Assembly: GCF_003019035.1 (NCBI RefSeq)
Contig: NZ_CP027447.1
DNA length: 64,000 nucleotides
Strand: one strand, 5' to 3'
Origin: Escherichia coli
Lineage (GTDB): Bacteria; Pseudomonadota; Gammaproteobacteria; Enterobacterales; Enterobacteriaceae
Position numbers: made by a program. Position 1 is the first letter of the stretch. Every line of letters starts with the position of its first letter. Below are positions 57,201-63,200 of this stretch, piece by piece.

Positions 57201-60200
57201 AGCTGGTGGAGTGTTTCCCGACTGATTTTCATCTGTCTTCCTTTTTAACGACGGTGTGAAGCATGACTGCAATTAACATACAGGGAAAATATCTGGATTA
57301 TGTGATCCAGACAGGCAAAAAAATATAGTTAGAATTTATTTGATAATCTTCGCGCTTTTAACCTGGTTATTTAAAATAACCATGCTTATTAAAAAATAAC
57401 GCGTAATAGCCTGGCGGTTATTTAAATTCTTTTGTTAATAATCCCTGTGTGATATTCATCACCTTATTTACTCGTTGTCATCGATACCGTAATCGCCACA
57501 TTAACACTGCTCGTGCAATTGCCATGGGTGCAATTTTTAAGGAGTTGTTATGATCCACGCCTTTATTAAAAAAGGGTGTTTTCAGGATTCGGTCAGTTTA
57601 ATGATTATTTCACGAAAACTCAGCGAATCAGAAAATGTTGATGATGTTTCCGTAATGATGGGTACGCCCGCCAATAAAGCGTTATTAGATACCACAGGTT
57701 TCTGGCATGACGATTTTAATAACGCCACGCCGAACGATATTTGCGTGGCAATTCGTAGCGAAGCGGCGGATGCGGGGATCGCGCAGGCGGTTATGCAGCA
57801 GCTTGAAGAGGCGCTAAAACAACTGGCGCAGGGTTCAGGCAGCAGCCAGGCGTTGACGCAGGTGCGTCGCTGGGACAGTGCCTGTCAGAAATTACCCGAT
57901 GCCAGTCTGGCGCTGATTTCAGTGGCTGGTGAGTATGCGGCGGAGCTGGCGAACCAGGCGCTGGATCGCAACCTCAACGTGATGATGTTCTCCGATAACG
58001 TCACGCTGGAAGATGAAATCCAACTTAAAACCCGCGCGCGGGGAAAAGGCTTGCTGGTGATGGGGCCAGACTGCGGTACATCGATGATTGCCGCCACGCC
58101 GCTGGCTTTTGCTAACGTGATGCCGGAAGGCAACATTGGCGTCATTGGCGCTTCCGGTACCGGGATTCAGGAGCTGTGCTCACAGATTGCGCTGGCAGGG
58201 GAGGGAATTACTCACGCGATTGGCCTTGGCGGGCGTGACCTCAGCCGTGAAGTGGGCGGCATCAGTGCGCTGACGGCGCTGGAAATGCTCAGTGCAGACG
58301 AGAAAAGCGAAGTGCTGGCATTTGTTTCAAAACCACCTGCCGAAGCTGTGCGTCTGAAAATTGTTAATGCCATGAAAGCAACTGGCAAACCGACGGTGGC
58401 GCTGTTTTTAGGTTATACCCCGGCGGTGGCCCGCGACGAGAATGTCTGGTTTGCCTCCTCGCTGGATGAGGCCGCACGCCTGGCTTGTCTGCTTTCACGC
58501 GTCACTGCGCGACGTAACGCGATAGCGCCTGTCAGCAGCGGATTTATTTGCGGTTTGTATACCGGCGGTACGCTGGCTGCTGAAGCGGCGGGATTACTTG
58601 CCGGACACCTTGGCGTGGAAGCCGACGATACCCATCAACATGGCATGATGCTGGACGCCGACGGACATCAGATCCTCGACCTGGGCGATGATTTTTACAC
58701 CGTCGGGCGTCCCCATCCGATGATCGACCCGACCTTACGCAACCTGTTAATTGCCGATCTCGGCGCTAAACCGCAAGTGCGCGTGTTGCTGCTTGATGTG
58801 GTGATTGGCTTCGGTGCGACCGCCGATCCTGCCGCCTCGCTGGTGAGCGCCTGGCAAAAAGCCTGTGCCGCGCGTTCAGACAATCAACCACTGTATGCCA
58901 TTGCCACGGTGACAGGCACTGAACGTGACCCGCAATGCCGCTCGCAGCAAATCGCCACGTTGGAAGATGCGGGGATCGCGGTAGTGAGTTCGCTACCGGA
59001 AGCCACCTTGCTGGCGGCGGCGTTAATTCATCCGCTCTCGCCTGCCACACAGCAACACACACCGTCATTACTGGAAAACGTCGCCGTGATTAACATCGGA
59101 TTACGCAGCTTTGCGCTGGAGCTACAAAGCGCCAGCAAACCGGTTGTGCATTATCAATGGTCGCCAGTCGCCGGCGGCAATAAAAAACTGGCTCGTTTAT
59201 TAGAACGTTTGCAATAAGGGGTTCCCATGTTTACATCAGTGGCGCAAGCCAATGCTGCGGTTATCGAACAAATTCGTCGCGCTCGTCCACACTGGCTGGA
59301 TGTGCAACCGGCTTCTTCACTTATCAGCGAACTAAACAAGGGCAAAACACTGCTTCACGCCGGGCCGCCAATGCGCTGGCAGGAGATGACCGGACCCATG
59401 AAAGGGGCGTGCGTGGGCGCATGTCTGTTCGAAGGCTGGGCGAAAGATGAAGCGCAGGCGCTGGCGATGCTGGAGCAGGGGGAAGTGAACTTCATTCCTT
59501 GTCACCATGTGAATGCCGTCGGGCCAATGGGTGGCATTACTTCTGCCAGTATGCCGATGCTGGTGGTCGAGAACGTGACCGACGGCAACCGGGCCTACTG
59601 CAACCTCAACGAAGGTATCGGCAAAGTGATGCGTTTTGGCGCTTACGGCGAAGATGTCCTGACTCGCCATCGCTGGATGCGCGATGTGTTAATGCCAGTA
59701 TTAAGCGCGGCGCTGGGGCGCATGGAGCGCGGTATCGATCTCACGGCAATGATGGCGCAGGGCATTACCATGGGCGATGAGTTCCATCAACGCAACATTG
59801 CTTCCTCTGCACTGTTAATGCGTGCGCTGGCCCCACAAATTGCTCGCCTCGATCATGATAAACAGCACATCGCGGAAGTGATGGATTTCCTCAGCGTGAC
59901 CGATCAGTTCTTCCTCAACCTCGCGATGGCTTACTGCAAGGCGGCGATGGATGCAGGCGCGATGATCCGCGCAGGCAGCATCGTCACGGCTATGACCCGC
60001 AACGGCAATATGTTCGGGATTCGGGTAAGCGGGCTGGGTGAACGCTGGTTTACTGCGCCTGTAAACACTCCGCAAGGTCTGTTTTTCACCGGCTTCTCGC
60101 AGGAGCAGGCGAACCCGGATATGGGCGATAGCGCGATTACCGAAACCTTTGGTATCGGTGGTGCGGCAATGATCGCAGCCCCTGGCGTAACACGCTTTGT

Positions 60201-63200
60201 CGGTGCGGGTGGCATGGAAGCGGCCAGAGCGGTATCTGAAGAGATGGCGGAAATCTTCCTTGAACGCAATATGCAGTTGCAGATCCCCGGCTGGGATTTC
60301 CAGGGCGCGTGTCTGGGGCTGGATATTCGTCGCGTGGTAGAAACCGGCATTACACCACTCATCAATACGGGTATCGCCCATAAAGAGGCGGGGATCGGGC
60401 AGATTGGCGCAGGCACTGTGCGTGCACCGTTGGCCTGCTTTGAACAGGCGCTGGAAGCACTGGCTGAAAGCATGGGGATTGGTTGAGGAACGCGCAATGA
60501 CGATCATCCATCCTCTGCTTGCCAGTAGTAGCGCACCGAATTATCGCCAGTCCTGGCGGTTAGCGGGAGTGTGGCGGCGGGCGATTAACCTGATGACGGA
60601 AAGCGGCGAACTGTTAACGCTGCATCGTCAGGGGAGTGGTTTCGGCCCCGGAGGATGGGTGCTTCGCCGCGCGCAATTCGATGCGTTATGCGGTGGATTA
60701 TGCGGCAATGAACGACCACAGGTTGTGGCTCAAGGGATTCGCCTCGGGCGTTTCACGGTTAAACAGCCACAGCGTTATTGTTTGCTGCGTATTACGCCGC
60801 CTTCGCATCCTCAACCGCTTGCAGCTGCATGGATGCAACGCGCGGAGGAAACCGGACTTTTCGGACCACTGGCGATGGCGGCAAGCGATCCGCTGCCCGC
60901 TGAATTACGCCAGTTTCGTCACTGTTTTCAGGCCGCGCTCAATGGCGTTAAGACCGACTGGCGGCACTGGCTGGGTAAAGGCCCCGGATTAACGCCAAGT
61001 CATGATGACACGCTGAGCGGAATGCTGCTGGCGGCCTGGTATTATGGCGCTTTAGATACGCGCTCCGGTCGCCCGTTTTTTGCCTGTTCCGACAATCTTC
61101 AACTCGTTACCACAGCGGTGAGCGTCAGTTATTTACGTTATGCCGCGCAAGGATATTTCGCCTCGCCACTCCTGCACTTTGTCCATGCTCTGAGTTGCCC
61201 GAAACGTACCGCTGTTGCGATTGATTCGCTGCTGGCGCTGGGGCATACGTCAGGGGCAGATACGCTGCTGGGGTTCTGGCTTGGTCAACAATTATTACAA
61301 GGAAAACCATGAAAACACTGGTTGTAGCTCTTGGGGGCAATGCCTTGCTTCAGCGCGGTGAGGCGCTGACGGCAGAAAATCAATATCGCAATATCGCCAG
61401 CGCTGTACCCGCACTGGCGCGCCTGGCCCGTTCTTATCGGCTGGCGATTGTTCACGGCAACGGGCCACAGGTGGGGCTGTTGGCGTTACAGAATCTGGCG
61501 TGGAAAGAGGTAGAACCGTATCCGCTGGATGTACTGGTGGCGGAAAGTCAGGGGATGATTGGCTATATGCTGGCGCAGAGCTTGAGCGCACAGCCGCAGA
61601 TGCCGCCTGTGACGACGGTGCTGACGCGCATTGAAGTTTCGCCTGATGATCCGGCGTTTTTGCAGCCAGAGAAGTTTATCGGTCCGGTTTATCAGCCAGA
61701 AGAACAAGAGGCACTGGAAGCGGCTTACGGCTGGCAGATGAAACGTGATGGTAAATATTTGCGCCGGGTGGTGGCGTCTCCGCAACCGCGTAATATTCTC
61801 GACAGCGAAGCCATCGAGTTGTTGCTCAAAGAGGGGCATGTGGTGATTTGCAGTGGCGGCGGCGGTGTGCCTGTGACGGATGACGGAGTAGGGAGTGAAG
61901 CAGTGATTGATAAAGATCTCGCCGCTGCGTTGCTCGCCGAGCAGATTAATGCCGATGGACTGGTGATCCTCACCGATGCTGATGCGGTATATGAAAACTG
62001 GGGAACGCCGCAGCAACGTGCCATTCGCCATGCCACACCGGATGAGTTAGCGCCACTTGCCAAAGCCGATGGTTCGATGGGGCCGAAGGTAACGGCAGTG
62101 AGTGGCTATGTCAGAAGCCGTGGTAAACCCGCGTGGATTGGGGCGTTATCGCGAATTGAAGAGACGCTGGCGGGCGAAGCGGGGACCTGTATTTCGCTGT
62201 AGTTGTAGGCATTAGACATTTGTGCCTGATGCGACGCTGATTATCCGACCTGGAAATATCACCACTTCCGCAGGTCGGATAAGGCGTTCACGCCGCATCC
62301 GGCAGGAATATGAGTACCAGGTTAACTGAACTTACTCTGCGCCCACATCACGCCGCTGGCATACTCTGGCGGCAGCAGCGGAATTAAGGCTTCCAGCGTC
62401 GCGGTCAGACGCGATGTGTCGCTGTCGGTCAAATTCAGATGCCCCACTTTACGCCCCGGACGGACTTCTTTGTCGTACCAGTGCAGATGCACCAGCGGCA
62501 GTTTCAGCCAGTCATAATTCACATCGCTACCAATCAGGTTGATCATCACCGACGGACTATTCACTACTGGTTGCGGTAACGGCAGATCGGTAATCGCCCG
62601 CAGATGCAGCTCAAACTGGCTGATGCTGGCACCGTTTTGTGTCCAGTGACCGCTGTTATGCACACGCGGAGCCAGTTCGTTGATCAGCAGACCTTGCGGG
62701 GTGACAAAACACTCCATCGCCATCACGCCCACATAGCCCAGCTCCTGCATAATCGCCGACAGCATCTCTTCGGCCTGCGCCTGCTGCTGCGCGTTGGCCT
62801 GCGGGAAAGCGACGCTGGTGCGCAAAATACCGTCCTGATGCAGGTTATGCGTCAGCGGATAAAACACGGTGCTACCATCAAAGCCGCGCGCGCCAACCAG
62901 CGACACTTCACCAGAGAAGTTTATGCCCTGCTCGACAATACATTCGCCGTAGCATTCAGCCGGTAACTGTTCGGTTTCATCGGCGCGTAAACGCCATTGA
63001 CCGCGTCCGTCATAGCCACCAGTGCGACGCTTAACAATCGCCAGCTCACCTAAACGATCAAACACCGCAGGCCACTCGCTGCGATCGGCAAGTAACTGCC
63101 ACGGTGCGGTCGGCAGGTGAAGCTTGTCGAAAAGCTGCTTCTGAGTCAGACGGTCAGCAATAATCGGGAACACATCGCGGTTCACAAAGGCCGGATGGCG

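Follow-up and report, generated by a model that had tools for sequence, protein, structure and literature searches.

Here we report that positions 59227..60486 of the window, the whole 64,000-nucleotide stretch of Escherichia coli contig NZ_CP027447.1 (assembly GCF_003019035.1) that was analysed, probably carry allG (formerly ylbE) in an ordinary, functional form, a reading to which we give a probability of about 0.95. The "K-12 frameshift" linked to this gene goes back to the earliest K-12 reference sequences; it is kept in the W3110 record and is gone from the MG1655 record as of version 3. The names fdrA, ylbE, ylbF and ybcF/arcC are superseded by allF, allG, allH and allK, which we use below except where a record or paper carries the older form. 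The features under discussion are:

56183..57232, minus strand: allD, divergent from allF
57233..57549, plus strand: allD-allF intergenic region with the allF operon promoter/regulatory region, 98% identical to MG1655
57349..57424, no strand assigned: polymorphic promoter patch of ~76 bp, -201 to -126 from the allF ATG, overlapping the AllS-binding fragment
57550..59217, plus strand: allF (fdrA), 555 aa, oxamic transcarbamylase subunit with succinyl-CoA-synthetase-alpha-like domains (Pfam CoA_binding and Ligase_CoA)
59227..60486, plus strand: allG (ylbE), intact 419-codon ORF
59340, plus strand: nucleotide 114 of allG, a synonymous site, G in the window and MG1655 version 3, A in the W3110 record and the old reference
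59478-59482, plus strand: GGGGG run at allG nucleotides 252-256, site of the legacy K-12 frameshift, in its intact 5-G form
60497..61312, plus strand: allH (ylbF), 271 aa, third oxamic transcarbamylase subunit (Pfam PF11392 AllH, 101.7 bits)
61309..62202, plus strand: allK (ybcF), 297 aa, catabolic carbamate kinase (NCBIfam equivalog NF006926, 616.9 bits; TIGR00746 arcC, 424.9 bits)

An earlier note on this DNA had described ylbE as an uninterrupted 419-codon frame, and this is borne out: translation on the plus strand runs from an ATG to a TGA at 60484-60486 with no internal stop. The open frame is not a product of chance, because a random stretch of 419 codons would remain open with a probability of about (61/64)^419, or roughly 2e-9. 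Moreover, the encoded protein belongs to Pfam PF06545 ("Oxamate carbamoyltransferase subunit AllG"; the AllG/YlbE family, earlier named DUF1116), with E = 7.9e-98; the score of 326.7 bits exceeds the cut-off of 27, and the match covers all of profile positions 1-215 of 215. It falls within the family fold represented by PDB 3clq, an uncharacterized Enterococcus faecalis V583 protein of family DUF1116/AllG from structural genomics and the only solved member. No NCBIfam model matches AllG or AllH.

The neighbouring genes that the note had named (fdrA, ylbF and "arcC", which is ybcF) are likewise present and intact. All four genes lie tightly packed on one strand, with spacers of 9 and 10 nt followed by a 4-nt overlap of the allK start with the allH stop; none has an internal stop, and all have lengths identical to those of K-12. 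The gene order allE-allC-allD / allF-allG-allH-allK / purK is conserved. AllF scores 1036.5 bits against NCBIfam NF004760 and matches PDB 3dmy ("Protein fdrA") with E = 5e-303, differing from its K-12 counterpart at 9 amino acids; AllH differs at 3, and a sequence search of the PDB with AllH returned no relative.

By analogy with the K-12 proteins, AllG would form the middle subunit of an oxamic transcarbamylase made of three subunits, AllF, AllG and AllH. During anaerobic use of allantoin, the complex would split oxalurate with phosphate into oxamate and carbamoyl phosphate, a reversible reaction measured for the K-12 proteins, and the co-transcribed carbamate kinase AllK would then use carbamoyl phosphate and ADP to yield ATP, NH3 and CO2. 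Much of this scheme has been established in K-12: co-transcription of the four allFGHK genes by RT-PCR and carbamate kinase activity of YbcF (PMC9843812), the kinetics of the purified AllFGH complex (Kim & Kim 2024, PMC11326118), and the need for all three transcarbamylase genes for activity (PMC11326118 Tables 1-3). The type of reaction, carbamoyl transfer between carbamoyl phosphate and an amine or amide, is shared with the classical transcarbamylases ATCase (PyrB), OTCase (ArgI/ArgF) and YgeW (PMC11326118). The operon would be turned on by AllS, the allantoin pathway regulator, and by ArcA under anaerobiosis. Published work already describes the gene, its operon, the enzyme activity and the regulators, and the finding in the window is an ordinary, known one.

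The earlier note had also taken ylbE to be annotated as a frameshifted pseudogene in K-12 MG1655, which holds for the W3110 record and the old MG1655 reference but not for the current one: in NC_000913.3 the ylbE CDS (b4572, YP_009029994.1) is annotated as intact, with a length of 1260 bp. The note had itself named an intact K-12 ylbE as the outcome that would overturn its claim, and NC_000913.3 supplies it. Between the window and this record, allG differs by 33 substitutions and no indels, 29 of them synonymous and 4 non-synonymous. The resulting dN/dS of about 0.04 indicates purifying selection on the gene. The two proteins share their length (419 aa) and their place within allFGHK, beside allECD and purK; they are identical at 415 of 419 residues without gaps, the window carrying K38 (E in K-12), M81 (I), F344 (Y) and G355 (S). 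In a 30-sequence alignment these are variable positions, none of them in an invariant or nearly invariant column, and the window allele would be expected to be as active as that of K-12.

Alignment to K-12 ylbE, the check that the note had proposed, locates the frameshift as the loss of one G from the GGGGG run. In RefSeq W3110 (NC_007779.1, Y75_RS02660) the gene, at the same locus as allG of the window, is 1259 bp long and carries the flag "frameshifted". Its sole differences from MG1655 version 3 are G114A and this lost G, two sites at which it agrees with the old MG1655 reference. Removing one G from the run in silico brings a stop at codon 87, as in the W3110 pseudogene, with 344 codons still open in the shifted frame. 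The window carries neither state of this legacy allele (4 G and A at nucleotide 114), having the intact form at both sites. The state of the old MG1655 reference (version 2) is taken here from the W3110 record and from three papers in which MG1655, resequenced against the older reference, shows within "pseudogene ylbE" the changes 547,694 A>G and 547,831 +G. The first of these falls at window position 59340; it is given as "547,694 A>G" in PMC5460176, and PMC4404585 describes it as a "silent substitution at position 114". The 4-G allele itself reflects either a genuine mutation in the stocks that were sequenced or an error of sequencing.

Across the species, ylbE is found by BLAST at no less than 80% query coverage in 5417 of 5426 genomes, and intact ylbE is the norm in E. 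coli. Feature names in the BLAST table carry no pseudogene flags (W3110 appears as plain "ylbE") and were not used to count pseudogenes; exact short-query matching of the 4-G and 5-G alleles was used instead, together with the span of sampled matches, which is 1260 bp in all 39 full-length ones. The exact 5-G K-12 81-mer occurs in 3777 records, and the exact 4-G 80-mer only in W3110 and in CIT, LIM and CAR; of the 5,417 records, these are the only 4 full-length ones with the exact 4-G allele (5 in the band of at least 99%).

These counts bear on a rival reading, in which ylbE is truly broken in K-12, the oxamate branch is lost there, and the intact gene of the window marks a real functional difference. 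The pseudogene listing in the old MG1655 reference would fit such a loss, as would the "frameshifted" annotation in W3110 RefSeq and in CIT, LIM and CAR, which are MG1655-like assemblies with the coordinates of the W3110 record. However, ylbE of CIT lies at 547581..548839, exactly as in that record, and the assembly and the old MG1655 reference agree in length to within 2 bp; this suggests that CIT is a consensus built on that reference. Besides the current MG1655 record, the independent MG1655 assembly CP032667 is also annotated with an intact 1260-bp ylbE, and MG1655, C600 and ER1709 each align to the 4-G query with one gap, which is what 5 G would produce; independent K-12 assemblies thus have the 5-G form. 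The inserted G has further been seen in MG1655-derived BW30270 and other stocks (PMC4404585). Wild-type MG1655 makes 17.7 mM oxamate from allantoin, falling to 0 in ΔallF, 0 in ΔallG and 1.2 mM in ΔallH (Kim & Kim 2024, PMC11326118). We therefore regard a broken K-12 gene as very improbable; the contrast implied by the earlier note, of an operon functional here and broken in K-12, fails because the MG1655 record is intact and the gene works in laboratory MG1655.

A second reading accepts the intact frame and supposes that the operon is regulated differently, or poorly, through the diverged AllS-binding region of the allF promoter. In K-12, EMSA places AllS binding in the fragment from -203 to -144 relative to the allF ATG and phosphorylated ArcA (ArcA-P) in that from -142 to -83 (PMC12535856); by position these map to about 57347-57406 and 57408-57467 of the window, respectively. 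The patch at 57349..57424 departs from K-12 by about 13 substitutions plus a 1-bp insertion, changes that are confined to it, and the AllS fragment holds most of the differences in the intergenic region. The exact 91-mer promoter haplotype of the window is also rare, found in 9 of 5426 genomes. Yet variation in this patch is general in E. coli: each of five aligned strains has a haplotype of its own, and the same strains keep the AT-rich core motifs and the remainder of the region unchanged. The strong purifying selection on the coding genes would be unexpected for a silent operon, and the close relative SCU-301 carries allS at a position matching about 42260..43186 of the window. Altered or poor regulation is thus unlikely, and for the allG allele of the window, read as ordinary and functional, we assume regulation equal to that of K-12. 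It is similarly doubtful that the rare haplotype alters the strength or timing of AllS induction of the oxamate branch in this lineage; were it to do so, it would represent a natural regulatory variant of anaerobic nitrogen recovery from allantoin.

Within the AllS-binding fragment, the 1-bp insertion creates a perfect palindrome, TGGTTATTT-A-AAATAACCA. An inverted repeat kept by compensatory changes (CGCG/CGCG in the window, CTCA/TGAG in K-12) was considered but is not supported, as pairing is perfect in just 2 of the 5 haplotypes. Scans for sigma-70 promoters and terminators gave sites no more numerous than in shuffled sequence.

With an intact allG in nearly every E. coli genome, the biological weight of its presence here is small. 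The observation serves rather as a caution on annotation: the K-12 "ylbE pseudogene" belongs to superseded or uncorrected records (MG1655 version 2, W3110) and not to the organism as commonly grown, and comparisons with K-12 should therefore use NC_000913.3.

Separately, the window holds, upstream of these genes, an intact adhesin gene of 6,925 codons.

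The ylbE (allG) reading frame in the window is real, intact and ordinary, and its position, start and stop are as an earlier note had described them:

59227-60486 (+), ylbE (allG), ATG start, 419 sense codons, TGA stop

A Shine-Dalgarno-like stretch containing GGGG lies ahead of the gene, within the 9-nt spacer 3' of the fdrA stop codon, and by our own arithmetic a random run of 419 codons would escape a stop with a probability of ~2e-9. The predicted product scores 326.7 bits (cut-off 27) with Pfam PF06545, an entry whose current title is 'Oxamate carbamoyltransferase subunit AllG'.

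The earlier note had set this intact copy against a K-12 MG1655 ylbE described as a frameshifted pseudogene. The present MG1655 record (NC_000913.3) refutes that description, since its ylbE (b4572, YP_009029994.1) occupies 548357..549616 as an intact 1260-bp CDS and bears no pseudogene flag; the supposed contrast rests on superseded annotation. An ungapped comparison of the window with MG1655 finds 33 substitutions (97.4% identity) and no indel, 29 of the changes being synonymous and 4 non-synonymous (dN/dS ~0.04). All four variable AllG residues (K38/E, M81/I, F344/Y and G355/S, window/K-12) avoid the columns that are invariant or nearly so in an alignment of 30 family sequences. Furthermore, fdrA, ylbF and ybcF (allF, allH and allK) are intact and equal in length in both genomes.

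The description does hold for the W3110 RefSeq record (NC_007779.1), in which ylbE is 1259 bp and still flagged 'frameshifted' (2582-3840 of the W3110 excerpt). Aligning the window, MG1655 and W3110 copies traces the frameshift to one missing G, and W3110 departs from MG1655 at exactly two positions:

gene nt 114, A instead of G in W3110, synonymous
gene nt 252-256 (window 59478-59482), GGGGG run one G shorter in W3110

When a single G is removed in silico, the window and MG1655 genes alike run into a stop at codon 87, and 344 codons remain open in the shifted frame; the result is the old ylbE pseudogene of two fragments. The same two ylbE differences have been published for resequenced MG1655 derivatives relative to the older, version 2 reference (PMC5460176; PMC4404585). 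With ylbE starting at 547581 in the W3110 record, nt 114 falls at 547,694 and the G run begins at 547,832, an exact coordinate match with those papers.

Across complete genomes the four-G allele is confined to very few records. A K-12 80-mer with four Gs has a 100% full-length match in only four, W3110, CIT, LIM and CAR (five records fall in the band of at least 99%, the fifth without a full-coverage listing), and the frameshift lies at mutually identical coordinates in these four; ylbE in CIT has the same coordinates as in the W3110 record and is flagged frameshifted (1288-2546 of the CIT excerpt). The records of the 'essential oils' strains CIT, LIM and CAR seem to be consensus assemblies that took the old MG1655 reference as their basis, and thus their frameshift may have been inherited from that reference instead of observed; CIT, at 4,639,673 bp, is within 2 bp of that reference in length. 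The corresponding 81-mer with five Gs is exact in 3,777 records. An independent MG1655 assembly (CP032667), C600 and ER1709 each lie one gap from the four-G query, and CP032667 carries an intact 1260-bp annotation. More broadly, ylbE is present in 5,420 of 5,426 complete genomes, with at least 80% query coverage in 5,417, and 39 full-length hits drawn at even steps through the ranking all span exactly 1260 bp. In strain AR_0085 (NZ_CP029741.1; excerpt positions 3774-5439), a deletion fuses an fdrA cut short at its C-terminal end to a ylbE that lacks its N-terminal part, with ylbF and ybcF intact beside the fusion; this is the one real loss seen, a rare case in which the enzyme has been lost naturally.

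Both gene and operon were characterised before, and the operon is published. Wild-type MG1655 forms 17.7 mM oxamate from 19.5 mM allantoin; ΔallF, ΔallG and ΔallH form 0, 0 and 1.2 mM, with flux diverted to oxalate, and the wild-type level is regained only with allF, allG and allH together (Kim & Kim, 2024, PMC11326118). Purified AllF-AllG-AllH is an oxamic transcarbamylase (KM 1.3 mM for carbamoyl phosphate and 36.9 mM for oxamate), as the same study showed (PMC11326118). The genes now bear the names allF, allG, allH and allK. AllS and ArcA activate allFGHK, with AllS binding a fragment at -203/-144 and ArcA-P one at -142/-83 upstream of the allF ATG (Kim & Kim, 2025, PMC12535856). Anaerobiosis, acting through ArcA, and AllS, the activator of the allantoin pathway, would thus jointly induce the operon; AllK would then make ATP and release NH3, allowing a urease-negative organism to recover one extra nitrogen and one ATP. 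This K-12 mechanism probably carries over to the window strain, given 99% protein identity and conserved synteny.

Among structural relatives, AllF is akin to succinyl-CoA synthetase alpha (Pfam CoA_binding and Ligase_CoA; PDB 3dmy and SCS-alpha chains). A sequence search of the PDB returned no solved relative for AllH and a single one for AllG, 3clq, an unannotated structural-genomics entry (E = 2.4e-111), so AllG has no fold-level link, through PDB relatives found by sequence, to classical transcarbamylases or any characterised enzyme; the AllFGH complex has no deposited structure. The AllG family is highly conserved, with at least 72% identity across Enterobacterales and Orbaceae.

The earlier note had proposed that the operon may be fully functional in this strain, and the allF promoter is the sole place where this stays an assumption:

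57233-57549, allD-allF intergenic region, equal to K-12 save one substitution (alignment column 211) and one patch
~57349-57424 (-201 to -126 from the allF ATG), divergent patch, ~13 substitutions and a 1-bp insertion relative to K-12

The patch overlaps the EMSA-defined AllS-binding fragment, and its insertion yields a perfect palindrome, TGGTTATTT-A-AAATAACCA (57364-57382). Five haplotypes occur in the five strains aligned, with AT-rich cores conserved around the patch, and the window's own 91-mer has exact matches in 9 of 5,426 genomes. An apparent compensatory inverted repeat (CGCG/CGCG in the window, CTCA/TGAG in K-12) is not maintained in the other haplotypes, and we propose no structure from it. 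Elsewhere in the allantoin cluster, between glxK and allE, 54057-54123 (+) matches the Rfam enterobacterial sRNA STnc480 (81.9 bits, gathering score 72).

Outside this cluster, a single uninterrupted ORF of 6,925 codons at 3629-24406 (+) encodes a giant BapA/SiiE-like Ig-repeat adhesin (BapA_N and many Big_13 domains; internal repeats of ~3 kb at ~75% identity), flanked by secretion genes:

2171-3526, TolC-family outer-membrane protein
24410-26572, type I secretion ABC permease/ATPase
26569-27744, HlyD adaptor

In SCU-301, a 99.9%-identical strain, the annotation splits the adhesin gene into five CDSs, and the gene is therefore either decayed or mis-assembled there. Between ybbP and mnmH, 39340-40320 (+) encodes an IS110-family transposase (DEDD_Tnp_IS110 and Transposase_20) annotated in SCU-301 as IS621, an element known for bridge-RNA-guided recombination. 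Beside it, an Rfam AgrB antisense RNA match at 40947-41035 (+) (53.6 bits, gathering score 40) adjoins a dinQ-like small toxin ORF at ~40601-40684 (SCU-301 annotation), and the pair resembles a type I toxin-antitoxin locus of the dinQ/agrB kind.
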